DNA from: a virus
Taxonomy: Duplodnaviria > Heunggongvirae > Uroviricota > Caudoviricetes
Length of the DNA: 55,363 nucleotides
Strand: one strand, 5' to 3'
Virus record (IMG/VR): IMGVR_UViG_2721755498_000004
Positions 5,878 to 55,363 of this stretch are shown here, piece after piece. The notes below the pieces were generated by a model. The model did not search any database. It saw nothing but the letters and a program-made list of their open reading frames with translations, and had not been told where the DNA came from. The position numbers and the translations under genes are program-made. The stretch's first letter is position 1, and every line of letters begins with the position of its first letter.

Positions 5878-5895
5878 CGTTCTGGGTTATAAAAT

Positions 5896-9295
<3,400 letters not shown>

Positions 9296-36745: not shown

Positions 36746-36774
36746 ATGATCATATTAAAAATGCTTTAACAGTC

Positions 36775-36811: not shown

Positions 36812-37468
36812 GTAAATATATTGGTTCTACATTGACAGGAGACTTCAACCATAAGAAGTAATCTGAATACTTGAGCAATAAATTTACTTAAGATTAATGA
36901 GCGCACCTTGCCGGACAAAGATAAACCAAGGTAACACCTTTTTTCTAGCCAGTATGTAATCAATCAGAAAGCCGCTCCATAAGAACAACAGCAAGACAAT
37001 AAATTGCCATTACAGCCGCAATAGCTAGCGCACATTTGAGAACCAGCACGACAACCTCCTGTATTGGACGTACACCAGTTCTGATAAATATGAGGCTGTC
37101 TCATCATTGATTCAATATAACTATTGGGTATAGTTTCTGTGATTTTGTTCTGTAGAAATGGAACACAACAACCAGTCACCACCAGCACTTCTTTAAATAC
37201 GCCAAGTCCGACGCAAGCTAACCTTCTAGTCCGCTTTGAGCGAGGAGCGGACCAAACCCGGCCAACTGACTCTTAAAGGGGCCGCAGGAATTTTTCGTCT
37301 GAACTTTCGAAGCTCCTCTCCCTGAAGACAGAAAACTTCTGTGTGCTGTGGGAATATTGAATCTTTGCCTTAGATATAAATAATTTTATCCCGCCTGAAG
37401 TTTACATTATTTTATTTATCTGTTTTTCTAAATCAGACTGCACTCCTTACTTAAATCAGGAGCCAGTC

Positions 37469-38668
37469 ATGCCATTTGTTATTTATGTGTTTACTATCAG
37501 TGCCTTTGCGCTCGGACTCGCGGAATTTGTCCCCATTGGGCTGACAGACGTTATGGCTCAGGGGTTGTGTGTGGGTGTGGAGCAGACCGGGGCAGCGGTT
37601 ACAACCTATGCACTGGGGGCAACGTTCGCGGCACCCGTACTGTCTGCGCTGACAGCAAGCTGGAGCCGGAAAAATGTAATGCTTACAACTGCCGTTGTGT
37701 TTACTGCCGGTAGTCTGGCGGCCGCGTTTGCAGCCACATTACCTCAGCTCCTGTTAGCGCGGTTCATTGCTGGTCTGGGACACGGCCTGTTTCTGGCTGC
37801 GGCATCCAGTACCGCAGCTCGTCTTGCTGGACCGGGTAAAGCAGGCAGAGCGGTGGCTGTGGTATTTGGTGGCTTTACTCTGGCGATGGCAATCGGCGTA
37901 CCGCTGAGTACATGGTTGGGGGGGGTGGTCTCATGGCGTCCAGTTCTCGGCGCTATTGCCGCTTTTGGCGCGTTCGGATTCCTTGGACTGTTGTTCGGTA
38001 TGAAAGATCCCGTACGCAGCGTGCCCGGTGAACATAGTGACTCAGCAATGCAGAATATCGGCATGCTGTTTAACCGTAAGTTGCTGGCCGGCGCGCTGGT
38101 TACGGTGCTGGCGTATGCAGGCTCGTTTACGGCTTACACCTTTATCGCACCTATTCTGACGCAGGTGACAGGGGTTACCGGAGCAACGGTGAGTCTGTTT
38201 ATGCTGGTTTACGGTATTACAGCTGCGGTAGGTAATATTCTTGGTGGGAAACTTACCGACAGCATGGGGGTTAATCGTGCCAATATACTCATCATTAGCG
38301 GCATTGTTGTTGTCGTGCTTGGTATGTGGCTGCTGTCATCCTCACCGGTGAGCATGGGCATTCTGGTTGCGCTGCTGGGTATGGTGACATTTGCCGCAGT
38401 GCCGGCACTGCAGGCCCGTCTGATTGGTGTCGCTGAGCAACATGCTCCTCATGCGCATGGTGTTGCTGCCGGCCTGAATATTGCGGGCTTCAACTCAGGT
38501 ATAGCGCTGGGATCAGTACTGGGCAGCATTACTATAAGCCACGCCGGTATCGTGTATACCGGTATCAGCGGTGCGATTGTTTCTCTGCTCGGCCTGCTGT
38601 TGCTGCTTGCACAAATCCGTCGCAGCCACAGTCGTAAATTTCAACAGGTTAAAATCGTAGGCCAGTAA
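37469..38668 (+). CDS. MFS transporter (12-TM)
   Basis: 399 aa, hydrophobic throughout, Gly/Ala-rich helices typical of major-facilitator permeases; GC-rich relative to phage genes. Confidence 0.8.
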   Translation: MPFVIYVFTISAFALGLAEFVPIGLTDVMAQGLCVGVEQTGAAVTTYALGATFAAPVLSALTASWSRKNVMLTTAVVFTAGSLAAAFAATLPQLLLARFIAGLGHGLFLAAASSTAARLAGPGKAGRAVAVVFGGFTLAMAIGVPLSTWLGGVVSWRPVLGAIAAFGAFGFLGLLFGMKDPVRSVPGEHSDSAMQNIGMLFNRKLLAGALVTVLAYAGSFTAYTFIAPILTQVTGVTGATVSLFMLVYGITAAVGNILGGKLTDSMGVNRANILIISGIVVVVLGMWLLSSSPVSMGILVALLGMVTFAAVPALQARLIGVAEQHAPHAHGVAAGLNIAGFNSGIALGSVLGSITISHAGIVYTGISGAIVSLLGLLLLLAQIRRSHSRKFQQVKIVGQ

Positions 38669-38679
38669 AGGGAGGTTAT

Positions 38680-39372
38680 ATGCTTACCCGTGAAAATATG
38701 CTTAATGGCACATTTGTCAGGGTGCATGAAGCGCTGCTCCCGGCGAATATGCTCTGGGACGCTGAAAAAATACGCGCATCAATGAACTCTACTCTGGAGG
38801 AGCGCCCGACGGGTGCTCCTGTCTGGATATTTGCCTACGGGTCATTGATGTGGAATCCCGTGCTGGCGATTGAAGAAATGCAACGGGCCCGTCTGAAAGG
38901 ATGGCAGCGCAGTTTCTGCATTCGTTTGATATCCGGACGAGCGACTCCTGATGTCCCCGGCAGGATGTTATCGCTCGACGAAGGTGGAATTACCGAAGGT
39001 ATTGCGTTCAGACTGCCGGAATCGACTCTTATTAATGAGCTGGAAATTGTCTGGACGCGCGAGATGATAACCGGTCTTTACCGTCCGGTCTGGGCAGACG
39101 TTTCGCTAGGAAACGGTGAGGAAATTCAGGCGCTGGCTTTCGTATCAGACAGACTGCATCCGCATTATGAACAGGACAATCTTACAGCGACCGTAGCGTT
39201 GAGCATCGCATCTGCCCGTGGAGACATTGGCACGAATGCAGATTATGTATGGAAACTGCAGGCCACTCTGGGTGCGTTGGGAATACGGGATGATTACGTG
39301 AGTGAACTGGCCCTTGCTCTGCATGAGGCTCCCTGTAACGATAAACTTCATCAGCGAGGCGCTTCACTATGA
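38680..39372 (+). CDS. ChaC-like gamma-glutamylcyclotransferase family protein
   Basis: 230 aa with YGSLMWNP motif, collinear with recalled E. coli ChaC; 11 bp after the MFS gene. Confidence 0.7.
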   Translation: MLTRENMLNGTFVRVHEALLPANMLWDAEKIRASMNSTLEERPTGAPVWIFAYGSLMWNPVLAIEEMQRARLKGWQRSFCIRLISGRATPDVPGRMLSLDEGGITEGIAFRLPESTLINELEIVWTREMITGLYRPVWADVSLGNGEEIQALAFVSDRLHPHYEQDNLTATVALSIASARGDIGTNADYVWKLQATLGALGIRDDYVSELALALHEAPCNDKLHQRGASL

Positions 39373-40250
39373 GCCATCTGAGCCATCTGCGAACGTTTCT
39401 TGAGGCCTATCGCTCTGGCTCCTTTTCAAAGGCGGCAGAACTACTGGGCATCACTCAGCCCGCGGCGTCACAGCATATCCAGTCTCTTGAGACTCTGGTT
39501 GGTAAGCGTCTGTTTATCAGGCAGGCCAGAGGCGTGACGGCAACCGAAGCTGCGGATGAGCTTGCCCGCTCAGTTTCACCCTTCATTGATGGTCTGGAAG
39601 AAAAGCTGTCCTCTTTCCGGTCAGGCTCTGTACGCGGGGGAACAATTAATCTGGCAGGACCGCCAGATTTTATTCATTCCCGGCTTGGGACAGTAATGGC
39701 TCCACTAATGAAGGAGGGGTATCGCCTACGCTTTCATACCGGCAATAAGCAACGTATTTATTCCCTTTTGCATGACGGGAGCGCCGATCTCGCTGTTACC
39801 GCATCTATGCCTGATGACCGTCTGTACGGCTATGCACATCTACTGACTGAACGCATGCTCCTTGTTCATGCTCCCGCCATGTCAGAGATCATCGGATCAG
39901 AACCTGGTGCTGAAACGCTTGCCTCATTACCGCTGATTGCTTATGACGAAGAGTTGCCACTGATTAGAGCGCTCTGGGCCTCCATGTTTCAGAGAGCCCC
40001 TGAGATGCAGGCTACATTCACCATTCCGGATTTACGTATTATCCGCGACTTGGTCTGTGACGGCCACGGGTGGACAGTGCTGCCGGATTATCACTGTGAC
40101 AATGACCTGAAAAGTGGTCGCCTGATTTCAGTGACACCTGCAGACCTCGCTCCGACTAATCATCTTTATCTGGTCTGGAACAAAAGGACGGCTAATAACA
40201 GCCGAACCGCCTATGTTCGGGATTACATTCTTAAAACGTTTCCGCGTTGA
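39369..40250 (+). CDS. LysR-family transcriptional regulator
   Basis: 293 aa; N-terminal HTH (..FSKAAELLGITQPAASQHIQSLE..) and LysR-type substrate-binding domain; 4-bp overlap with the ChaC-like gene. Confidence 0.85.
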   Translation: MSHLSHLRTFLEAYRSGSFSKAAELLGITQPAASQHIQSLETLVGKRLFIRQARGVTATEAADELARSVSPFIDGLEEKLSSFRSGSVRGGTINLAGPPDFIHSRLGTVMAPLMKEGYRLRFHTGNKQRIYSLLHDGSADLAVTASMPDDRLYGYAHLLTERMLLVHAPAMSEIIGSEPGAETLASLPLIAYDEELPLIRALWASMFQRAPEMQATFTIPDLRIIRDLVCDGHGWTVLPDYHCDNDLKSGRLISVTPADLAPTNHLYLVWNKRTANNSRTAYVRDYILKTFPR

Positions 40251-40380
40251 TGTTTGAAACGGATGATTGGCGATGCGTATCATAAGTTACGTATGTCCGC
40301 TTCTGGCACAAAGCAGACGCCCACTCTCACGCGAATGCTTTGCCCTTGACTTGCCAACAACCGTATCGCTTGCTCCGCAA

Positions 40381-41673
40381 CTATGGTTTTTTATTAGAAT
40401 CTTCGCCACTAAATAAATTATAATAAATTGATTTTATTAGATATCTGTCAGAATCTATATGGTCAGCACGAGTAGCATGCTCTAATGTTTCAAATGCCAG
40501 AGTATGTGCGGCTTCAGCAAATATCCCAGGCCAACCCTTACTCAGCATCGACAGTCCTTTAAGTACCCTTATCTGAATTTCCCTCATACTGGCACCATCG
40601 CGCGCAACAGGTGAGAAAAAGTCTTCAAGTAGATCGTTATTCTGAAGTGGTGCAACATGTACAGAAGGATATTTCACTTCTATTTCATCAGATTTATTCT
40701 GCGCGTAAGCGGAAAGTATACGTACACCTCTGCCAATGACATCAATGGCGGTTCCAGGATCGTTCACTGCGGGGGAAAGGGCTCGGCAGGCTATTTCGGC
40801 CATGACGCTAAGACAAAATCGGGGGTCCTGAGCAAATGAACGTACATCCGAGACAATAATCGTCTCAAGTAAATCGGTGCTGATTGATGACTCCTGGCCC
40901 TGACTCAGGTACAAAACTGGCGTGGACGGATGTATGAAACTGCCCGGCTGCGCCACGAGGTATACATGACGGGGATCATTGGTCAGCAGCTTGCTGAGTT
41001 TCACCATATCAACATATTCAACATAGCCAATCTTTTTCGGATAAACTGCAACCGTTCCTTTCGGCTGTTCATTGTTCTCAAGCCATGGATATCCGCCGAG
41101 ACAGGGATTTCTTGCTCTCGCAATAAATGTTTCGATGGCCGCCTGTTCTACTTTTGCCGTTGTCTCACCAACCCTCCCCAGAGAGGTCAAATGCTGTATC
41201 CAGCGAAGCAATGTGATGAGGATTAAGGCAATGACAACCAGTGTTACAATGAATAAAATGACTCTCCCCCTTTCTCCATAAGCTCCCATATTGAGGGCAA
41301 TAATCCCTACCAGACTGAAGAGAAAAGAACCGATGAAGGTGGCCAGTACATTTTGTGTGGTGACGTCTTCAACAACTAAACGAGTAGCTCTGGGAGTCAC
41401 ATTAGTAGTGGCTGAACCGTAGGCTGTGACCATGATGCTCAGCGAAAATGTGGTCACTGCCAGCATACTCGATGCCAGTATGTTCAGAATGTTATCGACT
41501 GCTTCCGCACCAACCTTCACGGAAACCGACTCAGGTATCATTGATTTAAAAAGAATTGATAAAAGGGCCGTTATTATTGCGACAATTGCGAATAACGTTG
41601 CCCTGAACCATAGTTTTTTAAATGTCTGCTTCAGCATCCATTTCCAGCGTGAAATCATTCTGCATTCCCTCAT
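40381..41673 (-). CDS. DUF2254-like membrane protein
   Basis: 430 aa; N-terminal block of about 4 TM helices and a large soluble C-terminal domain. Family name from recall. Confidence 0.5.
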   Translation of the reverse strand: MRECRMISRWKWMLKQTFKKLWFRATLFAIVAIITALLSILFKSMIPESVSVKVGAEAVDNILNILASSMLAVTTFSLSIMVTAYGSATTNVTPRATRLVVEDVTTQNVLATFIGSFLFSLVGIIALNMGAYGERGRVILFIVTLVVIALILITLLRWIQHLTSLGRVGETTAKVEQAAIETFIARARNPCLGGYPWLENNEQPKGTVAVYPKKIGYVEYVDMVKLSKLLTNDPRHVYLVAQPGSFIHPSTPVLYLSQGQESSISTDLLETIIVSDVRSFAQDPRFCLSVMAEIACRALSPAVNDPGTAIDVIGRGVRILSAYAQNKSDEIEVKYPSVHVAPLQNNDLLEDFFSPVARDGASMREIQIRVLKGLSMLSKGWPGIFAEAAHTLAFETLEHATRADHIDSDRYLIKSIYYNLFSGEDSNKKP

Positions 41674-41685
41674 ATTGCAGCCGGG

Positions 41686-41714
41686 ATAAATAAATGCCGC
41701 CTCTGTGGCGGCAT
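41686..41714 (-). terminator. rho-independent terminator candidate after the BCCT gene
   Basis: Stem atgccgcc/ggcggcat with 5-nt loop, followed on the minus strand by ttatttat; between the BCCT stop and the DUF2254 start. Confidence 0.5.
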
Positions 41715-41721
41715 GTTGCTG

Positions 41722-43725
41722 TTAACGAACCAGATGCAGGAAGTGCAGGTGTTTTTCGTACTGGTCCAGTATGTCATTAATCAGCTGTTCCTGATTCCAG
41801 CCCATTACATCATAATTTTGGCCGCCCTCTTTGAGATAGACTTCAGCGCGATAATATCGATGTTGTTCACTCTGCTGCTCATCATTATCCAGCGCAGCGA
41901 GCGCGAAGGTCGGTGAGTTATACCCGCGAAGCCTCACTTCATATATATAATTCAGCTCGTTGCCCAAATCGACTTCAAGGCGAATACGATCCTCGGCGGC
42001 GTCACTGATGTGGCTTATCGTTCCCTGCTTGTTAAGTTCCTCCTGAACCAGCGTCATGGCGGGTTGGATAATGTCGTCCATAAAACGTTTCACAAGAGAG
42101 CGCTTCGGCAAATACGCGATATTGCGTAACCTTCTCTGCCAGGGAATTGGGTTACGTGCAGCCGTAGGAGCAATAGTCGCCATGCTAAGGCTTTCACGCT
42201 TGGTTAAATCCCGACGCAGGGCTTTTAACAGTCCGTATATGGATATTAATAAGATAACTGAGAAGGGCAATGCACTCGCTATCGTTACGGTTTGCAACGC
42301 ACTCAGCCCCCCTGCGATCAGCAGGGCAATAGCAACAACGCCCATGAGCGATGCCCAGAAAATTCGCTGCCAGACGGGCGTGTTTGCCACCCCACCTGAT
42401 GCCAGAGTATCCACAACCATTGCCCCCGAATCAGCAGACGTTACAAAGAAGACGATGACCATCGCCATTGCAATGAATGACAGCACGGAAGAGAACGGGA
42501 AATGCTCCAGGAAATTAAACAGGGCAAGCGCAACATCCTGCTGAACGGTATTGGCGAGGTCAGTGGCGCCCTGGTTCATGATGAGATAGATGGCGCTGTT
42601 TCCAAACACCGTCATCCACATGAGCGTAAAGCCGGCGGGAACAAACAACACGCCAGTCACGAACTCACGAATTGTCCTGCCGCGGGAAACGCGTGCAATG
42701 AACATACCTACAAACGGCGACCATGAAAGCCACCATCCCCAGTATAATAATGTCCAGCCCCCCAGCCAGTTGCTCGACTTGGGTTCATACGCGTAAAGGT
42801 TGAACGTTTTACTCACCAGTTCCGACAGATAACCACCCGTATTTTCCACAAATGACTTCAGCAGAAGCACAGTGGGACCCAGGCACAAGACCAGCGCCAG
42901 GAGCAACACCGCCAGGCCCAGATTAAGCTCAGACAGGATGCGTATTCCCTTGTCCAGGCCGGACACCACCGAAATCGTCGCTAACCCCGTGATGACCACG
43001 ATCAAAATGACCTGTACCGTTTCATTGATGGGCACGCCGAAAAGATGGTTCAAACCGGCATTCACCTGCAATACACCGTAACCCAGCGATGTTGCAACGC
43101 CAAAGACAGTGCCTATCACGGCGAAGATATCAACCGCGTGGCCTATAGGCCCGTAAATGCGATCGCCGATAATGGGATAGAGCGCAGAACGCAGCGTTAA
43201 AGGCAGACCGTGACGGTAACTGAAAAAGGCCAGAATCAGCGCCACGATGGCATAAATTGCCCATGCGTGCAGACCCCAGTGGAAGAACGTCAGGCGCATG
43301 GCTTCCTTCGCTGCCGCAACGGTCTCTGGAGTGCCGACAGGTGGCGAAAGATAATGCATCACAGGTTCGGCAACGCCAAAGAACATCAGGCCGATCCCCA
43401 TCCCTGCCGAAAAAAGCATCGCGAACCAGGAGTGGTAGCTGAAATCAGGCTGCGCATGGTCTGGGCCCAGCTTTATATCACCGTAACGTGAGAGTCCAAG
43501 GAACGTGACGCTCAGTAAAATCAGGGCCACAGCAAGTATGTAGAACCAGCTGGCATTCGTGAAGATTTGTTGCTGAAGTAGTTTAAAATTTTTGTCGGCG
43601 ACATCCGGGAATACGGCGGCAAAGGCGACAAGAAGGAAAATTAGCAAAGCAGATGTAAAGAATACCGCTTTGTTAATCTGGCTTGTAGACTTCTTTGGGG
43701 TTGTATCATTTTCACTCATAATCAT
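41722..43725 (-). CDS. BCCT-family transporter (BetT-like)
   Basis: 667 aa; 12-TM core with Trp-rich segment (WTLLYWGWWLSWSPFVGMFIARVSRGRTIREF) typical of BCCT carriers, plus a long cytoplasmic C-terminal extension as in BetT. Confidence 0.85.
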   Translation of the reverse strand: MIMSENDTTPKKSTSQINKAVFFTSALLIFLLVAFAAVFPDVADKNFKLLQQQIFTNASWFYILAVALILLSVTFLGLSRYGDIKLGPDHAQPDFSYHSWFAMLFSAGMGIGLMFFGVAEPVMHYLSPPVGTPETVAAAKEAMRLTFFHWGLHAWAIYAIVALILAFFSYRHGLPLTLRSALYPIIGDRIYGPIGHAVDIFAVIGTVFGVATSLGYGVLQVNAGLNHLFGVPINETVQVILIVVITGLATISVVSGLDKGIRILSELNLGLAVLLLALVLCLGPTVLLLKSFVENTGGYLSELVSKTFNLYAYEPKSSNWLGGWTLLYWGWWLSWSPFVGMFIARVSRGRTIREFVTGVLFVPAGFTLMWMTVFGNSAIYLIMNQGATDLANTVQQDVALALFNFLEHFPFSSVLSFIAMAMVIVFFVTSADSGAMVVDTLASGGVANTPVWQRIFWASLMGVVAIALLIAGGLSALQTVTIASALPFSVILLISIYGLLKALRRDLTKRESLSMATIAPTAARNPIPWQRRLRNIAYLPKRSLVKRFMDDIIQPAMTLVQEELNKQGTISHISDAAEDRIRLEVDLGNELNYIYEVRLRGYNSPTFALAALDNDEQQSEQHRYYRAEVYLKEGGQNYDVMGWNQEQLINDILDQYEKHLHFLHLVR

Positions 43726-44059
43726 TTATTCCATTAATTAAATCCGCACTGGATAGAAGGTACTACCTCTCACAGAGTAGCAAAGTTCAACTGGCTATGC
43801 GGGGTTAATCGGAATGCATGGTGGAATGAGTGCCGATACAAATCATCCTATATTCTAAGGAGTTTTAAGTTACTCAGCCTGCCAATTACTGGGGCATTTA
43901 ATTTGTATGATCTGTATCAAAGCTGGGATATAAGTTAAGTGAAGTATATTAGGCACGAATTACCAGCGTCTGCTCTTGGCACAAAGCGGACAACCACGCT
44001 AGCTCTACCCTGTGCCACAAAATGTCAATTTGCATCTGAACTAATGCACTTTAATCTCG

Positions 44060-44482
44060 TCACTTCAATAAATACCGAACATCCCCCTGATAAAACGACA
44101 ATATGCGCTGCATAACTTCGCTCTTCCGGCACTCGCGACAGATTATGTTTAGGCGACTGTCGTAGCGACGTATTTCTCCGTCAGGTAATGACCAGATAAG
44201 GTCCGGATCAACCACAACCGGTTTCTTCAGCTTTGCCCTCGATAATTTTTTGCGGACATTTTGCCAGTCTTTACGAGCCTGTTCAGACGGGAATAACCCG
44301 TAGCCAGAATTGTATACATCGCCACTGGCAACCAGCTCTCTGGCCAGAACGCTCATCAGATATCTTGTTGCCCCAGTTTTAGCTTCCAGTTGTCGTAACG
44401 TCTCGCGCCCACTCTGGCGTACGAGTTCAAGAACCTGCCCTTTAATTTTTTCCCGCTCTTCTTGTGTAAAAACTTTTGCCAC
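44060..44482 (-). CDS. hypothetical protein (140 aa), last gene of the replication-side block
   Basis: Basic protein with a CRECRK segment, downstream of the initiator-like gene; not DnaC-like. Confidence 0.4.
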   Translation of the reverse strand: MAKVFTQEEREKIKGQVLELVRQSGRETLRQLEAKTGATRYLMSVLARELVASGDVYNSGYGLFPSEQARKDWQNVRKKLSRAKLKKPVVVDPDLIWSLPDGEIRRYDSRLNIICRECRKSEVMQRILSFYQGDVRYLLK

Positions 44483-44522
44483 AAGCCCTCCTGAAAATTA
44501 CCTCATGACCAGAAATTAACAC

Positions 44523-45599
44523 TTACCCCCTGAAGCCCGGCGGAATTTCGTTATCCGGTTCAGAAATATGATTCACACAACGCTGGTTGTTCGTGCCGCT
44601 TACCGGGAGCAACCAGGGGTTCTCAAAATTCCGGTCCGGTCCAAAAAACGTCGTCGCTCGCTGAACAAATTCCGTTCCCGTTTTCCCGGTAGCCGCCAAG
44701 TATCTTGCGTAACGCCTCACGCCATCCAGCATGGCCTCTGGTGGCACCCCCTCGCGTAATCTGGCCTTCCAGGCACTGAAAGCGGATTTCTTCGGGTTTG
44801 CCCCAGCACGCAACGGGTACTCCCGCCAGACCTGTTCGAACACATCCGGATAATCCACTCGTCCCACAGACTGCCCGGTGTTTTCCGGGACTACCCGATC
44901 GGCTTCCCGCTGAATGGCGGAATCGGCTTCAGGCTGCTGCAGTTGGTGTGATTGCTCCGCCCTTGCGGTCATCACCTGCTGCACAGCGCCCGAATCGGCT
45001 TTCAGCGCATACGCTGAATCGGCTTCCGGTGTCGTGCCTGCTGGCTGACCAAGATTGACGGTCTGAACATCCCCTGCCTGGTTCGTGGCGTTTTTTACGC
45101 CATGGACCATAGTGTTTTGATCTTCTTGATCTGTATCTTTATCTGTATCTTTATCTGTCGTGACTCGTCGTGACATGTGCGTGACATTTCGTGACGCGCC
45201 GTGACAATCGCCATTTTGTTCCCGCTTTCTTTCCCTCTCTCGCTGCGCCCTCTTGCGCTCTGCAGGAGATTTTGCGGTTTGCGAAATATTGCCGTTGTCC
45301 TCTTTAAGCACCTGGCGTTTTTCCCATCCAGTGATTAAATCACCATCAAGTACCCGCCCCTGCATCGTCTGCAAAATTGAATCAATTACCTCTTCTGTCA
45401 CGTCGAGCGCACTTGCCAAATCTTCTGTCGTGACATCAATGTGACCTCGCGTGACATTTCGTGACGCGCTCACCAGGAGGTGGATATACACTGCCATCAC
45501 TGTTGCAATTGGCTGTCCTGACACCCTGGCAATTGTTCGCCACTTAGGGTCATTTGGCATGTCATGCCATAATCTGAGCCAGGCGTTAGCCATACTCAC
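44523..45599 (-). CDS. replication initiator-like protein (lambda O-position), contains iteron-like repeats
   Basis: 358 aa; N-terminal domain, internal acidic TDKDTDKDTD linker encoded by DNA repeats, C-terminal domain; located after the Cro-like and YdaT-position genes. Confidence 0.5.
   Translation of the reverse strand: MSMANAWLRLWHDMPNDPKWRTIARVSGQPIATVMAVYIHLLVSASRNVTRGHIDVTTEDLASALDVTEEVIDSILQTMQGRVLDGDLITGWEKRQVLKEDNGNISQTAKSPAERKRAQRERERKREQNGDCHGASRNVTHMSRRVTTDKDTDKDTDQEDQNTMVHGVKNATNQAGDVQTVNLGQPAGTTPEADSAYALKADSGAVQQVMTARAEQSHQLQQPEADSAIQREADRVVPENTGQSVGRVDYPDVFEQVWREYPLRAGANPKKSAFSAWKARLREGVPPEAMLDGVRRYARYLAATGKTGTEFVQRATTFFGPDRNFENPWLLPVSGTNNQRCVNHISEPDNEIPPGFRG
45129..45205. 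repeat. iteron-like array 1: tandem ATCTGTATCTTT x2 then five CGTGAC repeats at 10-11-bp spacing
   Basis: CGTGAC at about 45159, 45169, 45180, 45190, 45200; read directly from the sequence. Confidence 0.6.
45430..45470. repeat. iteron-like array 2: four (C/T)GTGAC repeats at 10-11-bp spacing
   Basis: Repeats at about 45430, 45441, 45451, 45461; the 21-bp block gcgtgacatttcgtgacgcgc (45450-45470) is identical to 45179-45199. Confidence 0.6.
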
Positions 45600-45664
45600 C
45601 TCTTTTGATACCGAATCTTTTTACTCACAAATTGCCGGAAGTGATCCGGTATGAATATTGCGAG

Positions 45665-46090
45665 TCAATGCACAGCCACAATATTTCCTGCAGGGCCACC
45701 ACGATTCATCTGGTTGAAACCAGCGATCGCCACTGCGACAAAATCATCAGCGTCTCTCACCAGTCGTTCCCGCGTCTCCACTAGTTCCCGAAAATAGGCT
45801 GAGCTATGGCTGCGCATTCGGGCCACCAGCAGAGGTGGCATTGCTTTTTCGATAGCTGGTAACAACGCCTGAATTTTTTCAACTGCATCAGGGGTGTCTT
45901 TCTCTACCCAGCGGAAAATTTTCTGGGTATTGCGAGCCAGGGCTTCCGGATGGCTGTCGTCATACAGTTCTGGGAACGTCATACCCAGTTCAAAATAAGC
46001 CCTGGTTATTTCAGCTGCCGGAACTTTTTCACCGTCCGGATGCGCCCAGGCATTCATCGCCATGCGGATGTGTTCATGCTTGATTTTCAT
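45665..46090 (-). CDS. early-region protein in the YdaT position (141 aa)
   Basis: Second gene of the rightward-early-like operon after the Cro-like gene; size matches K-12 YdaT (140 aa). Identity by synteny only. Confidence 0.45.
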   Translation of the reverse strand: MKIKHEHIRMAMNAWAHPDGEKVPAAEITRAYFELGMTFPELYDDSHPEALARNTQKIFRWVEKDTPDAVEKIQALLPAIEKAMPPLLVARMRSHSSAYFRELVETRERLVRDADDFVAVAIAGFNQMNRGGPAGNIVAVH

Positions 46091-46355
46091 GAATCAAGCT
46101 CCTAGAAAGTGGTTGTGTTAACATTTTGGTATCTTCCAGCTCGGGCCAAATATTCATCCAATCAAAAGGCCTTAGTTGCTGACGTGTAACTTCACCATTA
46201 CTGGCTCGCTCAATAAGGACACATAACGATGCCCCTAACACTTGACCTTTACTCAATGCCTTTCTTAGATAACCGATGCTGGTACCACACTCGCATGCAA
46301 ACATACGCTGTTCATCTGACGAAAGAGAATTGAGAAATATTCTTAATTCTTCCAT
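46074..46355 (-). CDS. Cro/CI-type HTH protein, divergent from the repressor gene (YdaS position)
   Basis: 93 aa with HTH-like segment (GTSIGYLRKALSKGQ); divergently transcribed from racR across an operator-bearing intergenic region. Confidence 0.55.
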   Translation of the reverse strand: MEELRIFLNSLSSDEQRMFACECGTSIGYLRKALSKGQVLGASLCVLIERASNGEVTRQQLRPFDWMNIWPELEDTKMLTQPLSRSLIHENQA

Positions 46356-46384
46356 AGCTACTCCTTAGTAAACACAGCAAAGAA

Positions 46385-46462
46385 TACCCATAGGTAAACA
46401 TAAGTCAATACCCACAGGTTGTTTACCTTGCAGTAATCGCATCTATTATTTACCTATGGACA
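46385..46462. promoter_or_regulatory. candidate operator cluster between the Cro-like gene and racR
   Basis: TACCCATAGGTA (46385-96), TACCCACAGGTT (46409-20), TACCTATGGACA (46451-62, overlapping the racR ATG); consensus palindrome TACCCATGGGTA. Confidence 0.55.
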
Positions 46463-46875
46463 AATATGAATTTAGACGACAGCAACTCATCAAAATTCGT
46501 GATGAGAAATGCGATGGTAAAGCGGTTAACGTGGCCAGAAAGATCGGGCGCGAGCCTTCTTATGTATCAAGAATGTTGTACCCAGAGGGGAAAAAGGGAA
46601 AAAAACGGATCGCTGATGATATGGTGGAGATTATCGAAGAGTCCTTTGGGTTACCCCGGGGATGGATGGATGGTATCGTTTCATCATCAACGAACACAGC
46701 CTCCAGTTATGAAACAAGGGTTCTTACGCCACGACAACGTATTTTTTTAGATCTCTTGGACGAACTGCCAGAAAGTGAAGCGGATAACTTATTAAAAACT
46801 CTTGAAGAGAAAAAACAGTATTACAATATGATCTACGAAGAAATCCGTAAAAAGAAAGCACAAAACGCATCATAG
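46456..46875 (+). CDS. racR: prophage repressor
   Basis: 139 aa, divergent from the Cro-like gene and flanked on both sides by palindromic operator-like sites. K-12 RacR is recalled as 158 aa, so start or identity may differ. Confidence 0.6.
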   Translation: MDKYEFRRQQLIKIRDEKCDGKAVNVARKIGREPSYVSRMLYPEGKKGKKRIADDMVEIIEESFGLPRGWMDGIVSSSTNTASSYETRVLTPRQRIFLDLLDELPESEADNLLKTLEEKKQYYNMIYEEIRKKKAQNAS

Positions 46876-46917
46876 CTCACCAAACAACTAGTCACCAGTT
46901 AAGACACCGTAAAAAGT

Positions 46918-46954
46918 TACCCATGGGTATTTACTTTTTAAATACCTATGGGTA
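46918..46954. promoter_or_regulatory. candidate operator pair downstream of racR
   Basis: Perfect palindrome TACCCATGGGTA (46918-29) and TACCTATGGGTA (46943-54), centres 25 bp apart, upstream of ydaG. Confidence 0.55.
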
Positions 46955-47129
46955 TCCTTCTTTTCATACCAACCCACCCCGCCCCACAGAATGCAGGGCA
47001 ATACTTCGAGTTACCAGGCAGTGGTCAGGGGTTAAGTAGCCAGCCCGAGGCGTAAGAACATGACGGCGGGATTCAAATTTTGCAGTGCAGCAGTTAGTTC
47101 CGCCACCCGGCGTTAAGGGGAGAGATAAG

Positions 47130-47264
47130 ATGGTGCATTACGAAGTAGTTCAGTATTTGATGGATTGTTGCGGTATCACTTACAACCAGGCTGTGCAGGC
47201 TTTACGCAGCAACGACTGGGATCTCTGGCAGGCAGAAGTCGCTATACGTAGCAACAAGATGTGA
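47130..47264 (+). CDS. ydaG: small protein YdaG-like (44 aa)
   Basis: Hand-found ORF (MVHYEVVQYLMDCCGITYNQAVQALRSNDWDLWQAEVAIRSNKM) with GGGGAGAG RBS; below the track cut-off; size and position match K-12 ydaG. Confidence 0.5.
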   Translation: MVHYEVVQYLMDCCGITYNQAVQALRSNDWDLWQAEVAIRSNKM

Positions 47265-47274
47265 GATTCGCAAA

Positions 47275-47430
47275 ATGCAAAAAATCGACCTCGGCAACAA
47301 CGAATCCCTGGTGTGCGGCGTGTTCCCCAACCAGGATGGAACGTTCACTGCCATGACGTATACCAAAAGCAAAACATTTAAAACCGAAACTGGTGCGCGC
47401 CGATGGTTGGAGAAGCACACAGTAAGCTAA
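47275..47430 (+). CDS. ydaF: small protein YdaF-like (51 aa)
   Basis: Hand-found ORF (MQKIDLGNNESLVCGVFPNQDGTFTAMTYTKSK...) 10 bp after ydaG; size and position match K-12 ydaF. Confidence 0.5.
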   Translation: MQKIDLGNNESLVCGVFPNQDGTFTAMTYTKSKTFKTETGARRWLEKHTVS

Positions 47431-47915
47431 CGATTAAAACGTCTACTCCTGCTGTTCCAGAATAACTTCATAAAATGGGAGTATTTTTCGGTGACGAGAT
47501 AATAAGAACAGTTTGCGCTATCACTCTGATGTTGAATGATGCCCTTCCGTTCTAATTTTTTCATAACCGGGTTACGGCAAGGAGAAGTGATAATAAGATT
47601 TCCTGTTTTAAGGAAATCTTTAAATACAGCGATTTCTTTCTCAGATAAACGAAGCAATACTCGTTGCTCTGGTAGTAATGAATAATGCTTTTGAATATGT
47701 GCTCGCAATCTTGAGAAGGAAATGGCGACCACGAAAGAAAAGGCAAAAACGATAATCTGAAAGAGCCAAGGTATTTCAGTATAAGCATTGAATGCGACAG
47801 TAAACTCTTTCGGTATCAGCCAGAGAGTGAGACCAAAAATGATAATCGTATACATAAGTCTTTCGAGTGGCTCGTTAGCAAAAAGTTTCAACAATGGAGT
47901 AAATACATCCAACAT
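47427..47915 (-). CDS. sieB: superinfection exclusion protein B
   Basis: Hydrophobic N-terminal half with basic C-terminus; 162 aa from MLDVFTPLLK (track ORF starts 5 codons earlier at 47930); position in the immunity region as in Rac. Confidence 0.7.
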   Translation of the reverse strand: MLDVFTPLLKLFANEPLERLMYTIIIFGLTLWLIPKEFTVAFNAYTEIPWLFQIIVFAFSFVVAISFSRLRAHIQKHYSLLPEQRVLLRLSEKEIAVFKDFLKTGNLIITSPCRNPVMKKLERKGIIQHQSDSANCSYYLVTEKYSHFMKLFWNSRSRRFNR

Positions 47916-47966
47916 ATCAATAACTCTCAACTGTAAGGGTATTGAAATGTTGGTAATGACTCCAAC

Positions 47967-48470
47967 TTATTGATAGTGTTTTATGTTCAGATAATGCCCG
48001 ATGACTTTGTCATGCAGCTCCACCGATTTTGAGAACGACAGCGACTTCCGTCCCAGCCGTGCCAGGTGCTGCCTCAGATTCAGGTTATGCCGCTCAATTC
48101 GCTGCGTATATCGCTTGCTGATTACGTGCAGCTTTCCCTTCAGGCGGGATTCATACAGCGGCCAGCCATCCGTCATCCATATCACCACGTCAAAGGGTGA
48201 CAGCAGGCTCATAAGACGCCCCAGCGTCGCCATAGTGCGTTCACCGAATACGTGCGCAACAACCGTCTTCCGGAGCCTGTCATACGCGTAAAACAGCCAG
48301 CGCTGGCGCGATTTAGCCCCGACGTATCCCCACTGTTCGTCCATTTCCGCGCAGACGATGACGTCACTGCCCGGCTGTATGCGCGAGGTTACCGACTGCG
48401 GCCTGAGTTTTTTAAGTGACGTAAAATCGTGTTGAGGCCAACGCCCATAATGCGGGCTGTTGCCCGGCAT
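47967..48470 (-). CDS. insB: IS1 transposase InsB
   Basis: 167 aa recognised as IS1 InsB. Confidence 0.9.
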
Positions 48471-48664
48471 CCAACGCCATTCATGGCCATATCAATGATT
48501 TTCTGGTGCGTACCGGGTTGAGAAGCGGTGTAAGTGAACTGCAGTTGCCATGTTTTACGGCAGTGAGAGCAGAGATAGCGCTGATGTCCGGCGGTGCTTT
48601 TGCCGTTACGCACCACCCCGTCAGTAGCTGAACAGGAGGGACAGCTGATAGAAACAGAAGCCAC
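48389..48664 (-). CDS. insA: IS1 protein InsA
   Basis: 91 aa with zinc-finger-like CxxC..CxxC N-terminus, recognised as IS1 InsA. Confidence 0.9.
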
Positions 48665-49133
48665 TGGAGCACCTCAAAAACACCATCATACACTAAATCA
48701 GTAAGTTGGCAGCATCACCTGAAATGTTAACACAAGCTCTCGCTGTAGGGGTATAGCCGAGACCACCGAAGCCCGGAGGTGGTGAAATAAAACCGGGCAC
48801 AACACGAAGGCGCATTTCCGATATCCATAAAGAGTCGGTCTTGTCTGTTAAATTTAAATGGTGGGAGTGCGCCTCCGGTTGTAAATAACGACATTGCTGT
48901 GTGTAGTCCTGGCGGCATCAGTTTTTTTCTTGAAGTTCGGCTGATGTCCGCCCTTTTTAAAGTGAATTTTGTGATGCGGTGAATGCGGCTAAGCGCACGT
49001 GGCACAGTTAAAAGTCATGTTAGTCCTTATTGGTTTGGGTGGGAAAGCCGACTGTAATTGTTAACTGGTTGCAGTCACCTGGAGGCACCAGACACCGCAT
49101 CAACAAAGTTCATTTGTAAAAATGGAGATAATT

Positions 49134-49355
49134 ATGATTGCACATCACTTCGGAACTGATGAAATACCACGTCAGTGTGTGACTCCTGGCGATTATGTTC
49201 TTCATGAAGGCCGGACATATATTGCCTCGGCAAACAATATTAAAAAGCGAAAACTATATATTCGTAACCTGACCACAAAAACATTCATTACTGACCGCAT
49301 GATTAAAGTCTTCCTCGGTCGTGATGGTTTACCTGTAAAGGCGGAGTCATGGTGA
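49134..49355 (+). CDS. kilR: cell-division inhibitor KilR
   Basis: 73 aa from [14 protein letters not shown] (GGAG RBS); size and position, first gene of the kilR-ydaE-racC-recET block, match Rac KilR. Confidence 0.75.
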
Positions 49356-49525
49356 TGACTAAGAAAATAAAATGTGCTTACCACCTTTGCAAAAAAGACG
49401 TTGAAGAAAGCAAAGCTATTGAAAGAATGCTTCACTTCATGCACGGGATTTTATCAAAAGACGAACCGAGAAAATATTGCAGTGAAGCTTGTGCCGAAAA
49501 AGACCAGATGGCACATGAACTTTAA
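49355..49525 (+). CDS. ydaE: small zinc-binding-like protein YdaE-like (56 aa)
   Basis: Hand-found [23 protein letters not shown]...CSEACAEKDQMAHEL, start overlapping the kilR stop; below the track cut-off. Confidence 0.55.
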   Translation: MTKKIKCAYHLCKKDVEESKAIERMLHFMHGILSKDEPRKYCSEACAEKDQMAHEL

Positions 49526-49599
49526 TTAATTGACTATTCGAAACTGAATTTATGCCAGAAATGGCAGGTATTCGCTCAACCTTAATTAAGGAGAAAAAC

Positions 49600-49875
49600 A
49601 TGATTACCAATTATGAAGCCACTGTTGTAACTACCGATGACATTGTTCACGAGGTGAATCTGGAAGGAAAGCGCATTGGCTACGTAATTAAAACAGAAAA
49701 TAAAGAAACCCCATTCACTGTGGTTGATATCGATGGTCCATCAGGCAACGTAAAAACACTTGATGAAGGTGTCAAAAAAATGTGCCTGGTGCATATCGGA
49801 AAGAATCTGCCCGCAGAAAAAAAAGCCGAATTTCTGGCAACTCTAATTGCAATGAAATTAAAAGGTGAAATCTGA
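49600..49875 (+). CDS. racC: RacC protein
   Basis: 91 aa from MITNYEATVV (AAGGAG RBS); immediately upstream of recE. Confidence 0.7.
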   Translation: MITNYEATVVTTDDIVHEVNLEGKRIGYVIKTENKETPFTVVDIDGPSGNVKTLDEGVKKMCLVHIGKNLPAEKKAEFLATLIAMKLKGEI

Positions 49876-49976
49876 AAGAAATAGCCTGCGTATGGCGCAG
49901 GCTATGAACAGTGTGTATCCGGCAAGATCATTCACTGAACAAAACGAATTTTAATCTGAGTTGAGGTTAAAAAACA

Positions 49977-52577
49977 ATGAGCACAAAACCACTCTTCCTG
50001 TTACGGAAAGCGAAAAAATCATCCGGTGAACCTGACGTCGTCCTGTGGGCAAGCAACGATTTTGAATCGACCTGTGCCACTCTGGACTACCTGATCGTTA
50101 AGTCAGGTAAAAAACTGATCAGCTATTTTAAAGCTGTTGCCACGAATTTTCCTGTCGTTAATGACCTGCCCGCTGAAGGTGAGATCGATTTTACCTGGAG
50201 TGAACGCTATCAACTCAGCAAAGACTCCATGACATGGGAACTAAAACCGGGAGCAGCACCAGACAACGCTCACTATCAAGGCAATACCAACGTCAACGGC
50301 GAAGACATGACTGAGATTGAGGAGAATATGCTACTCCCAATTTCTGGCCAGGAACTGCCCATTCGTTGGCTTGCTCAACACGGCAGCGAAAAACCGGTAA
50401 CGCACGTTTCACGCGACGGACTCCAGGCATTACACATTGCTCGGGCTGAAGAACTACCGGCTGTTACTGCCCTGGCTGTTTCCCACAAAACCAGCCTGCT
50501 CGACCCGCTGGAAATTCGCGAACTCCACAAACTGGTTCGTGACACTGACAAAGTTTTCCCTAATCCTGGTAATTCAAACCTGGGACTGATAACTGCTTTT
50601 TTCGAAGCATACCTGAACGCTGACTACACCGATCGAGGACTGCTGACAAAAGAGTGGATGAAGGGTAATCGTGTTTCACACATCACTCGCACGGCTTCCG
50701 GTGCTAATGCTGGCGGCGGAAACCTCACCGATCGCGGCGAAGGTTTCGTACACGATCTGACGTCACTGGCGCGCGACGTAGCCACTGGCGTACTGGCCCG
50801 TTCAATGGATCTGGACATCTATAACCTTCATCCGGCACACGCTAAACGCATTGAGGAAATTATCGCTGAAAATAAACCGCCCTTTTCTGTTTTCCGCGAC
50901 AAATTCATCACCATGCCTGGCGGGCTGGATTATTCCCGCGCCATCGTGGTTGCGTCCGTAAAAGAAGCACCAATTGGGATCGAGGTCATCCCCGCGCACG
51001 TCACTGAATATCTGAACAAAGTACTGACTGAAACCGATCATGCCAACCCTGATCCGGAAATCGTGGATATTGCCTGCGGTCGCTCCTCTGCCCCGATGCC
51101 GCAGCGAGTAACAGAAGAAGGAAAACAGGATGATGAAGAAAAACCGCAACCATCTGGAACAACGGCAGTTGAACAGGGAGAGGCTGAAACAATGGAACCG
51201 GACGCAACTGAACATCATCAGGACACGCAGCCGCTGGATGCTCAGTCACAGGTAAATTCTGTTGATGCGAAATATCAGGAACTGCGGGCAGAACTCCATG
51301 AAGCCAGGAAAAACATTCCATCAAAAAATCCTGTCGATGCCGATAAATTGCTTGCTGCATCACGTGGTGAATTTGTTGACGGAATTAGCGACCCGAACGA
51401 TCCGAAATGGGTAAAGGGGATCCAGACTCGCGATTGTGTGTACCAGAACCAGCCAGAAACGGAAAAAACCAGCCCGGATATGAATCAACCTGAGCCAGTA
51501 GTGCAACAGGAACCGGAAATAGCCTGCAATGCCTGCGGCCAGACTGGCGGGGATAACTGCCCTGACTGTGGTGCGGTGATGGGCGACGCAACATACCAGG
51601 AAACATTCGATGAAGAGAGTCAGGTTGAAGCTAAGGAAAATGATCCGGAGGAAATGGAAGGCGCTGAACATCCGCACAATGAGAATGCTGGCAGCGATCC
51701 GCATCGCGATTGCAGTGATGAAACTGGCGAAGTCGCAGATCCCGTAATCGTAGAAGACATAGAGCCAGGTATTTATTACGGAATTTCGAATGAGAATTAC
51801 CACGCGGGTCCCGGTATCAGTAAGTCTCAGCTCGATGACATTGCTGATACTCCGGCACTATATTTGTGGCGTAAAAATGCCCCCGTGGACACCACAAAGA
51901 CAAAAACGCTCGATTTAGGAACTGCTTTCCACTGCCGGGTACTTGAACCGGAAGAATTCAGTAACCGCTTTATCGTAGCACCTGAATTTAACCGCCGTAC
52001 AAACGCCGGAAAAGAAGAAGAGAAAGCGTTTCTGATGGAATGCGCAAGCACAGGAAAAACGGTTATCACTGCGGAAGAAGGCCGGAAAATTGAACTCATG
52101 TATCAAAGCGTTATGGCTTTGCCGCTGGGGCAATGGCTTGTTGAAAGCGCCGGACACGCTGAATCATCAATTTACTGGGAAGATCCTGAAACAGGAATTT
52201 TGTGTCGGTGCCGTCCGGACAAAATTATCCCTGAATTTCACTGGATCATGGACGTGAAAACTACGGCGGATATTCAACGATTCAAAACCGCTTATTACGA
52301 CTACCGCTATCACGTTCAGGATGCATTCTACAGTGACGGTTATGAAGCACAGTTTGGAGTGCAGCCAACTTTCGTTTTTCTGGTTGCCAGCACAACTATT
52401 GAATGCGGACGTTATCCGGTTGAAATTTTCATGATGGGCGAAGAAGCAAAACTGGCAGGTCAACAGGAATATCACCGCAATCTGCGAACCCTGTCTGACT
52501 GCCTGAATACCGATGAATGGCCAGCTATTAAGACATTATCACTGCCCCGCTGGGCTAAGGAATATGCAAATGACTAA
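49977..52577 (+). CDS. recE: exonuclease VIII (RecE)
   Basis: 866 aa, the length of K-12 RecE; the C-terminal nuclease-domain sequence is recognised. Confidence 0.9.
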
Positions 52578-53379
52578 GCAACCACCAATCGCAAAAGCCG
52601 ATCTGCAAAAAACTCAGGGAAACCGTGCACCAGCAGCAGTTAAAAATAGCGACGTGATTAGTTTTATTAACCAGCCATCAATGAAAGAGCAACTGGCAGC
52701 AGCTCTTCCACGCCATATGACGGCTGAACGTATGATCCGTATCGCCACCACAGAAATTCGTAAAGTTCCGGCGTTAGGAAACTGTGACACTATGAGTTTT
52801 GTCAGTGCGATCGTACAGTGTTCACAGCTCGGACTTGAGCCAGGTAGCGCCCTCGGTCATGCATATTTACTGCCTTTTGGTAATAAAAACGAAAAGAGCG
52901 GTAAAAAGAACGTTCAGCTAATCATTGGCTATCGCGGCATGATTGATCTGGCTCGCCGTTCTGGTCAAATCGCCAGCCTGTCAGCCCGTGTTGTCCGTGA
53001 AGGTGACGAGTTTAGCTTCGAATTTGGCCTTGATGAAAAGTTAATACACCGCCCGGGAGAAAACGAAGATGCCCCGGTTACCCACGTCTATGCTGTCGCA
53101 AGACTGAAAGACGGAGGTACTCAGTTTGAAGTTATGACGCGCAAACAGATTGAGCTGGTGCGCAGCCTGAGTAAAGCTGGTAATAACGGGCCGTGGGTAA
53201 CTCACTGGGAAGAAATGGCAAAGAAAACGGCTATTCGTCGCCTGTTCAAATATTTGCCCGTATCAATTGAGATCCAGCGTGCAGTATCAATGGATGAAAA
53301 GGAACCACTGACAATCGATCCTGCAGATTCCTCTGTATTAACCGGGGAATACAGTGTAATCGATAATTCAGAGGAATAA
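52570..53379 (+). CDS. recT: recombinase / single-strand annealing protein RecT
   Basis: 269 aa from [16 protein letters not shown], recognised as RecT; overlaps the recE stop. Confidence 0.9.
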
Positions 53380-53435
53380 TTCAGCCTGGCGGTGTAATGC
53401 ACCGCCAACTTGAAATATTTTTTATGAGAAAAATT

Positions 53436-53630
53436 ATGAGATATGACAATATTAAACCATGTCCATTTTGTGGTTGCCCATCAGTAACGGTGAAAGCCAT
53501 TTCAGGATATTACCGAGCGAAGTGTAACGGATGCGAATCCCGAACCGGTTATGGTGGAAGTGAAAAAGAAGCACTCGAAAGATGGAATAAACGAACCACT
53601 GGAAATAATAATGGAGGTGTTCATGTATAA
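53436..53630 (+). CDS. ralR: restriction-alleviation protein / toxin RalR (Lar)
   Basis: 64 aa from MRYDNIKPCPFCGC with CxxC..CxxC zinc ribbon; follows recT. Confidence 0.8.
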   Translation: MRYDNIKPCPFCGCPSVTVKAISGYYRAKCNGCESRTGYGGSEKEALERWNKRTTGNNNGGVHV

Positions 53631-53832
53631 AATTACCGCCACTATTGAAAAGGAAGGTGGCACTCCTACTAACTGGACAAGATATTCAAAATCTAAACTA
53701 ACGAAATCAGAATGCGAAAAAATGCTCTCAGGTAAAAAAGAAGCAGGCGTTTCCAGAGAGCAGAAAGTAAAACTGATAAATTTTAATTGCGAGAAACTTC
53801 AGTCCTCGAGAATTGCATTGTATTCAAATTAA
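53623..53832 (+). CDS. ydaC: small protein YdaC-like (69 aa)
   Basis: Internal ATG with GGAGG RBS (MYKITATIEKEGG...); overlaps the ralR stop; size matches K-12 YdaC. Confidence 0.55.
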   Translation: MYKITATIEKEGGTPTNWTRYSKSKLTKSECEKMLSGKKEAGVSREQKVKLINFNCEKLQSSRIALYSN

Positions 53833-53910
53833 AACTTCATAGCTGATTATTAATAATCAACATCGGGCGTCAATTTCAGTCTAACATTGGCGCCTGCCAG
53901 AGGTGATGCG

Positions 53911-54126
53911 ATGGCACAAGTAATCTTTAATGAAGAGTGGATGGTTGAATACGGCCTGATGCTTCGCACTGGTCTGGGGGCCAGACAAATTGAAGCATAC
54001 CGCCAGAACTGTTGGGTGGAGGGCTTCCACTTCAAACGAGTATCTCCTTTAGGTAAGCCAGACAGCAAACGAGGGATTATCTGGTACAACTATCCAAAGA
54101 TAAATCAGTTTATCAAAGACTCATGA
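53911..54126 (+). CDS. xisR: excisionase
   Basis: 71 aa from [21 protein letters not shown], immediately upstream of the integrase. Confidence 0.8.
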
Positions 54127-54127
54127 T

Positions 54128-55363
54128 ATGTCTAAATTACCAACAGGTGTCGAGATTAGAGGTAGATACATTCGCATCTGGTTCATGTTTCGAGGAAAAC
54201 GATGTCGGGAAACATTAAAAGGCTGGGAGATTACAAACAGTAATATTAAAAAGGCCGGAAATTTAAGAGCGCTGATAGTTCATGAAATAAACTCCGGTGA
54301 ATTTGAGTATTTAAGACGTTTTCCCCAGTCCAGCACTGGGGCAAAAATGGTGACAACGAGAGTCATAAAAACGTTCGGAGAGCTTTGTGATATCTGGACA
54401 AAAATTAAAGAGACAGAGTTAACAACAAACACAATGAAGAAAACGAAATCACAATTAAAAACACTCAGAATAATAATTTGTGAAAGTACCCCGATATCAC
54501 ATATTCGTTATAGCGATATCTTAAACTACCGGAATGAACTGCTGCATGGAGAAACGCTTTACCTGGATAATCCAAGATCCAACAAAAAAGGAAGAACCGT
54601 GCGCACAGTTGATAACTATATCGCCCTGCTCTGTTCGCTGTTGCGTTTTGCGTATCAGTCGGGATTTATATCAACCAAACCATTTGAAGGAGTAAAAAAA
54701 TTACAGCGAAACAGAATAAAGCCTGATCCGTTATCTAAAATAGAATTCAATGCATTAATGGAAAGTGAAAAAGGACAGAGCCAGAACTTGTGGAAATTTG
54801 CCGTTTACTCAGGACTTCGTCACGGGGAACTGGCAGCTCTGGCGTGGGAGGATGTGGATCTCGAAAAGGGAATAGTGAATGTCAGAAGAAACCTGACGAT
54901 ACTTGATATGTTCGGTCCCCCAAAAACAAATGCCGGGATCCGAACAGTAACACTACTGCAGCCTGCTCTTGAAGCACTGAAGGAGCAATACAAACTGACC
55001 GGGCATCATCGCAAAAGCGAAATCACCTTTTATCATCGGGAGTACGGCAGAACCGAAAAGCAAAAACTGCATTTTGTTTTCATGCCCAGGGTGTGTAACG
55101 GAAAACAAAAACCTTATTACTCGGTAAGCAGTTTGGGGGCAAGGTGGAATGCAGCAGTAAAACGTGCTGGTATTCGCCGCCGTAATCCGTACCATACGCG
55201 GCATACTTTTGCCTGCTGGCTGTTGACGGCAGGAGCGAACCCGGCATTTATAGCCAGCCAAATGGGGCATGAAACTGCGCAGATGGTGTATGAAATTTAC
55301 GGTATGTGGATTGATGACATGAACGACGAACAGATAGCCATGTTGAATGCGCGGTTATCGTAG
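54128..55363 (+). CDS. intR: tyrosine integrase
   Basis: 411 aa with C-terminal catalytic motifs (..HTRHTFACWL.., ..GHETAQMVYEIY..); stop codon is the last 3 bases of the window. Confidence 0.9.
   Translation: MSKLPTGVEIRGRYIRIWFMFRGKRCRETLKGWEITNSNIKKAGNLRALIVHEINSGEFEYLRRFPQSSTGAKMVTTRVIKTFGELCDIWTKIKETELTTNTMKKTKSQLKTLRIIICESTPISHIRYSDILNYRNELLHGETLYLDNPRSNKKGRTVRTVDNYIALLCSLLRFAYQSGFISTKPFEGVKKLQRNRIKPDPLSKIEFNALMESEKGQSQNLWKFAVYSGLRHGELAALAWEDVDLEKGIVNVRRNLTILDMFGPPKTNAGIRTVTLLQPALEALKEQYKLTGHHRKSEITFYHREYGRTEKQKLHFVFMPRVCNGKQKPYYSVSSLGARWNAAVKRAGIRRRNPYHTRHTFACWLLTAGANPAFIASQMGHETAQMVYEIYGMWIDDMNDEQIAMLNARLS

Follow-up and report, generated by a model that had tools for sequence, protein, structure and literature searches.

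Insertions of IS1 are polar in both orientations via Rho, and in the classical polar cases, those of the gal and lac operons, the element lies between a promoter and the genes downstream of it. For the Rac prophage of E. coli, the sbcA mutations and the Tn5/IS50 insertions that activate recE work by making or unmasking a promoter that reads into it. In the same early operon, kil is expressed by transcription arriving from the racR side (PMC4150792), which is normally held off by Rho and NusG (PMC4150792, PMC5793797). Since K-12 remains viable when a deletion from sieB to ydaU takes away racR and leaves kilR in place (PMC5700373), kilR would seem to be without a strong promoter of its own.

The DNA analysed here (hereafter the window, a whole stretch of 55,363 nt) is a Rac-like prophage with ttcA as its integration site; it carries a single copy of IS1, whose transposase is encoded on the minus strand. 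The original prediction had placed an IS1 with a 9-bp duplication between sieB and kilR, and this is confirmed by the terminal repeats, the reading frames, the duplication itself and the empty site in K-12. The interval 47943-48728 consists of exactly the duplication, IS1 and the duplication, with the following anatomy.

47943..47951, unstranded: left copy of the target-site duplication, TGAAATGTT, present as a single copy in the K-12 empty site (L003 3544-3552)
47952..48719, minus strand: complete IS1 of 768 bp, IS1A-like by sequence comparison with IS1 copies
47952..47974, unstranded: IRR terminal inverted repeat, GGTAATGACTCCAACTTATTGAT, facing sieB (repeat search)
47967..48470, minus strand: insB' frame, open to 47967, DDE_Tnp_IS1 match at 2.3e-78 (Pfam)
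48389-48664, minus strand (read from 48664 to 48389): insA, 91 aa, Zn-ribbon and HTH (open reading frame and Pfam)
48407..48413, minus strand: A6C programmed -1 frameshift motif leading from insA to insB', nucleotides 307-313 of IS1
48685-48712, minus strand (read from 48712 to 48685): inward promoter-like site inside IRL, CTGCCA-16-TATGAT
48697..48719, unstranded: IRL terminal inverted repeat, the reverse complement of GGTGATGCTGCCAACTTACTGAT, facing kilR (repeat search)
48720..48728, unstranded: right copy of the target-site duplication, TGAAATGTT

The ends of the element are the imperfect repeats of about 23 bp that are expected of IS1, beginning GGTGATGCTGCC and GGTAATGACTCC. Its low-coordinate tip (IRR) starts GGTAATGACTCC and its high-coordinate tip (IRL) finishes GGCAGCATCACC, and 18 of the 23 positions (78%) agree between IRL and IRR. 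The insA and insB' frames are both intact and joined by the A6C motif, with Pfam matches to PF03811, PF12759 and PF03400 (InsA Zn-ribbon, InsA HTH and DDE_Tnp_IS1, respectively), and RefSeq labels an identical IS1 copy 'programmed frameshift'. Only 3 nt separate this IS1 from IS1A of K-12, with which it shares its length of 768 bp, terminal repeats, insA, A6C frameshift, insB' and 9-bp duplication, and from which it differs in kind only by its location. It is 100% identical to the IS1 of strain H7, and identical also to copies in other E. coli. Being intact by sequence, it may be able to transpose.

The 9-bp direct repeat TGAAATGTT is perfect on both sides of IS1, and in MG1655, where the Rac site is uninterrupted, the two flanks overlap by exactly these nine bases: window positions 46965-47951 align to positions 2567-3552 of the K-12 locus (L003), and 48720-52400 to positions 3544-7224, with flank identity of ~99.5-99.9%. 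The insertion is real and no chance similarity. An intact IS1 has recently transposed, without further complication, into AT-rich DNA (GC around the insertion is 35-40%) between two genes of a Rac-like prophage at ttcA; the element is a known one and the event, an ordinary transposition, is unremarkable. The distances originally given are also correct, the offset to the sieB start (47915) being 37 bp, with 36 bases between the ATG and the tip of IRR, and the distance from the tip of IRL to the kilR start (49134) being 415 bp.

The annotation of a close relative reads intR, xisR, rcbA, ralR, recT, recE, racC, ydaE, kilR, sieB, ydaF and onwards, and the same gene names are found at the K-12 MG1655 locus. 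Along the window, the features that matter for the effects of IS1 are these.

46918..46958, plus strand: repressor-distal operators overlapping the predicted early-left promoter pL (repeat search and promoter scoring)
47427..47915, minus strand: sieB, 162 aa (Pfam SieB, PF14163, 1.5e-31)
48706..48733, plus strand: weak candidate for a hybrid outward promoter, TTGGCA (in IS1)-16-TG-n-TAACAC (in the flank), 7.5 bits
48898..48953, plus strand: terminator-like DicF-type element, a GC-rich hairpin with a CCUUUUU tail (39.1 bits, E 4.2e-7, below the Rfam gathering score of 48)
48955..49141, plus strand: STnc100-like structured leader directly upstream of kilR (28 bits, E 2.9e-4, below the Rfam gathering score of 47)
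49134..49355, plus strand: kilR, 73 aa, 415 bp downstream of the IRL tip
49355-49525, plus strand: ydaE
49600-49875, plus strand: racC
49977-52577, plus strand: recE, starting 1258 bp from the IS1 tip
52570-53379, plus strand: recT

The part of the early-left block that follows kilR (ydaE-racC-recE-recT) thus spans 49355..53379 on the plus strand. The DicF-like element, the hairpin of which has a predicted folding energy of -21.9 kcal/mol and lies ~180 bp before kilR, is common to K-12 Rac; its 3' hairpin and U-tract are conserved and its 5' seed region is unlike that of DicF, and the empty-site search found this stretch to be ~80% identical to regions near dicB in many genomes. The STnc100-like leader terminates at the kilR ribosome-binding site, and its outer helix is an inverted repeat (I1) with arms at 48954-48981 and 49093-49120.

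Several other features of the prophage may be recorded here. At Rfam gathering thresholds, the only match within 44000-55363 is the RalA antitoxin sRNA of the RalR/RalA type I toxin-antitoxin pair, full length at 53629-53807 on the minus strand (225 bits). Between racC and recE lies a hairpin with a perfect 10-bp stem (49881-49905), which is terminator-like on the minus strand alone, where TTCTTTC follows, the plus strand being without a U-tract; it may halt antisense transcription out of recE. Still inside the prophage, the replication genes are separated from the late region by a cargo block (~36300-43725) encoding an MFS transporter, a gamma-glutamylcyclotransferase, a LysR regulator, a DUF2254 protein and a BCCT transporter, according to gene names taken from an annotated relative.

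K-12 homology begins at 46965, and the repressor, a protein of 139 aa with no Pfam match, is a different immunity allele from K-12 RacR; the immunity region also encodes a 93-aa YdaS-like protein. The same allele is found in strains H7, HCP17S3_I4 and 2017.15.01CC. A repeat search revealed one family of 12-bp palindromes, with TACCCATAGGTA and TACCCACAGGT between the repressor and cro-like genes, and TACCCATGGGTA (46918-46929) and TACCTATGGGTA (46943-46954) just downstream of the repressor gene, the palindromes of this repressor-distal pair matching those of the repressor/cro-like intergenic region. Altogether, the family of operator palindromes (of the TACCCATGGGTA type) occupies 46383-46462 and 46918-46955. 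A reading of 46918-46954 as a terminator-like hairpin was discarded, the stretch being reread as two adjacent operator palindromes common to the repressor/cro region. The top sigma-70-like site within 46850-49140, at 10.6 bits, overlaps this pair on the plus strand (TTTACT at 46930-46935, a 17-bp spacer and TATCCT at 46953-46958), and its K-12 counterpart, TTGACA-17-TATAGT, is flanked by TTAGGC...CCTA repeats of its own.

This layout is the expected oL/pL arrangement, with pL a predicted promoter. In the direction of pL lie ydaG and ydaF, sieB (which is crossed antisense), the insertion site, a leader of ~400 nt and then kilR-ydaE-racC-recE-recT, which puts IS1 between a predicted operon promoter and the downstream genes, as in gal and lac. 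The published entry of transcription into kil from the racR side (PMC4150792, PMC5793797) and the viable sieB-ydaU deletion (PMC5700373) are in line with this path. The operators and pL, upstream of IS1 and pointing through it, therefore support the place in the path of the operon that the original prediction had given the element, between the racR-distal operators and the kilR-to-recT block; the name racR in that claim has to be given up, the repressor being of another allele.

Transcripts from pL (~46965) would thus have to cross IS1, antisense to insAB', before reaching kilR-ydaE-racC-recE-recT, and would acquire 768 nt that are not translated and in large part rich in C and poor in G, which would lead to more Rho-dependent termination. 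When the plus strand was scanned from pL to kilR (46965-49133) in 78-nt windows, a measure that serves as a heuristic for rut sites and not as a prediction of terminators, the sole run with a C content of at least 25 and a C/G ratio of 1.3-1.6 was ~47990-48320, inside IS1. A further short stretch of IS1, 48642-48680, has a C/G of 1.7-2.0. Beyond the element, these values are attained by no window but the first, at pL (46965), and the IS-free untranslated path from pL to kilR mostly has more G than C. The locus thus shares with the gal and lac insertions the presence of C-rich, G-poor untranslated RNA in the direction of transcription. Given this rut-like composition and the known Rho-dependent polarity of IS1, added termination is the likelier direction of any effect, which indirectly favours the suggestion that the element could terminate transcription. 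IS1 is more likely to block the silent kilR-recET genes than to switch them on, and would silence them further upon prophage derepression or when Rho/NusG is compromised.

Unlike gal and lac, this is the early operon of a repressed prophage, already attenuated by Rho, and polarity here is a prediction from sequence. The IS-free path already has a terminator-like hairpin and ~930 nt of RNA that is not translated, so that IS1 may add little, and since pL is repressed in a stable lysogen the insertion may be without phenotype in ordinary growth. An N-like antitermination system, if present in the prophage, would override IS1 polarity; no N-like antiterminator was found between pL and kilR, where YdaG (UBA-like) and YdaF (DUF1391) give no sign of being one.

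The most direct consequence, which the original prediction overlooked, likelier falls on sieB. This gene is codirectional with insAB', and IS1 splits the sole promoter-like site (TTGTGT-17-TACAGT) that lies directly upstream of it when the empty site is reconstructed. A leadered sieB mRNA must start upstream of the GAGAG Shine-Dalgarno, and the -35 therefore lies beyond the insertion point, so that any promoter for such an mRNA would lose at least its -35 region. The upstream promoter region of sieB has thus probably been lost, though the promoter could be of the extended -10 or of a distal type. sieB would be left reliant on weak read-out from IS1, the likeliest remaining source of its transcription because of the shared direction of sieB and insAB'.

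How common such insertions are was assessed in 5,426 complete E. coli genomes, 1364 of which have the uninterrupted 1224-bp sieB-kilR segment at a coverage of at least 80%. None carries the IS1 insertion in the orientation of the window. Strain HCP17S3_I4 has IS1 at the identical 9 bp, with the same duplication, in the opposite orientation and with 4 nt differences in the element, and this must therefore have been an independent event. About eight further genomes have IS1 elsewhere between sieB and recE. Simple insertions with a duplication are found (i) inside sieB in strain 573 (AGTTTGCGC), (ii) 7 bp before the kilR ATG in APEC_AN-25 (AAAATGGAG), (iii) inside kilR in H7 (GGCCGGACA) and (iv) inside ydaE in EEC_W5 (GAAGAAAGC). 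In four strains, IS1 stands at the locus without a duplication and adjacent DNA has been lost or replaced: the 5' part of sieB is missing beside it in WEM25, the DNA from recE to abgT in CAVP776 and that from racC to int in TUM9757, while in GDSC2239PM the left flank of IS1 has been replaced. The insertions in these other strains share their element family and their ~1.8-kb segment with that of the window, and HCP17S3_I4 its 9-bp target as well, but they differ in position or orientation, and several have disrupted sieB, kilR or ydaE or deleted recET. By analogy with these strains, the IS1 of the window would be a potential source of IS1-mediated deletions of adjacent DNA. Exact junction patterns, in both orientations and for both sides, had no match in metagenome contigs or in contigs of species-representative genomes. 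In the closest relative among complete genomes, strain 2017.15.01CC, IS1 lies beside tolA-like fragments near the lysis genes (L012 3042-3739), which is another independent insertion in Rac-like prophages.

Taking these observations together, we consider it probable, with some reserve, that a plain, recent transposition of IS1 has created a barrier in cis to kilR-recET, cost sieB its promoter and provided a source of deletions. Activation has nevertheless to be weighed, in the form of an outward or hybrid promoter at IRL that would drive kilR and recET independently of the repressor, as in sbcA strains. Clark et al. are said to have described, in 1994, the switching on of recE from a promoter in Tn5/IS50, in the same operon and likewise upstream of recE. 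The passages of PMC8764528 and PMC9330008 that cite Prentki 1986 indicate that the outward -35 box in the inverted repeats of IS1 can make hybrid promoters, which function only given a good -10 at the correct spacing. Outward boxes are present in both repeats, TTGGCA at the IRL end and TTGGAG at the IRR end, each 8 bp from its tip, but a good -10 at 16-18 bp is absent from the flanks: the kilR side offers just TAACAC, preceded by TG and set off from TTGGCA by a 16-bp spacer across the IRL junction, and on the sieB side no hybrid promoter scores 5.5 bits or more. TAACAC matches at 3 of 6 positions and misses the conserved last T, and the candidate reaches 7.5 bits against the 10.6 of pL; the DicF-like hairpin with its U-tract and the structured leader stand between it and kilR, and the start of recE lies beyond kilR, ydaE and racC. 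KilR is, moreover, toxic if made constitutively, so that selection would act against a strong promoter at this place. Unlike the sbcA and Tn5/IS50 cases, the window IS1 thus offers a weak hybrid candidate followed by 1.26 kb and one terminator-like hairpin before recE. With no strong promoter apparent and a terminator-like hairpin intervening, sbcA-like activation of recET appears unlikely, the notion that IS1 could re-drive transcription into kilR/recET finds little support, and an IRL promoter acting independently of the repressor has, in our estimate, very little chance of being the explanation.

A barrier to kilR-recET combined with loss of the sieB promoter is also to be set against the possibility, which we regard as real if doubtful, that IS1 is a neutral passenger in an early-left operon that is repressed and attenuated by Rho and the DicF-like element anyway, with sieB fed by IS1 read-out or dispensable. 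That pL is overlapped by operators, that Rac kil/recET have been reported silent in normal growth (PMC3945230, PMC12482147) and that IS-free Rac too has a terminator-like hairpin ahead of kilR all fit this. So does the number of IS1 at the locus, ~10 seen in the 1364 genomes for ~5 expected from ~11 IS1 copies per 5-Mb genome and a 1.8-kb target; this excess is unconvincing, and an enrichment of IS1 was accordingly rejected. However, IS1 has physically taken the place of the -35 region that a proximal sieB promoter would have, insertions of the element inside operons are classically strongly polar, and KilR-dependent phenotypes emerge under Rho/NusG compromise (PMC4150792, PMC5793797), so that a barrier should be detectable in those conditions. 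At the other extreme, the site might be hit again and again because it pays to cut sieB or kilR off from their control regions, as a form of domestication. HCP17S3_I4 and the window do share their 9-bp target in opposite orientations, a coincidence for which ~1% would be expected under uniform targeting of six simple insertions in ~1.7 kb, and elsewhere IS1 has entered sieB or kilR, or landed immediately ahead of the kilR ATG. Yet the passage of PMC9330008 that cites Zerbib et al. 1985 describes a preference of IS1 for AT-rich DNA and specific hot spots, which the coincident target fits at the local GC content; occupancy is within ~2-fold of random expectation, and the metagenome and species-representative scans brought no further examples. 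Nor is there an orientation bias: an apparent one, from four other genomes that all had the orientation of the window, would have hinted at selection against transposase-sense read-out into kilR, but it arose because matches are joined on one strand only and was dropped when a query with inverted IS1 added five in the opposite orientation, giving a split of 5 vs 5. Selection for a hot spot is hence most improbable, and it is unlikely that IS1 recurrently targets TGAAATGTT, 27-36 bp upstream of sieB, in Rac-like prophages and works there as a domestication switch, insulating kilR/recET, uncoupling sieB and forming a first step to deletions of the module. It is mildly notable that unrelated strains have taken up IS1 at one and the same 9 bp in opposite orientations.

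If the preferred reading of IS1 as a polar barrier is true, the strain would (i) better tolerate inhibition of Rho/NusG or derepression of the prophage, since less KilR would be made, (ii) be harder to convert to RecET proficiency, in the sbcA-like manner, by operator mutations and (iii) possibly have lost superinfection exclusion of the SieB type. These consequences would be modest and strain-specific, and leave our knowledge of IS1 or Rac unchanged, but together with the other strains the locus offers a few naturally occurring IS1 insertions and IS1-linked deletions in series, from which the decay of a lambdoid early-left module can be read.
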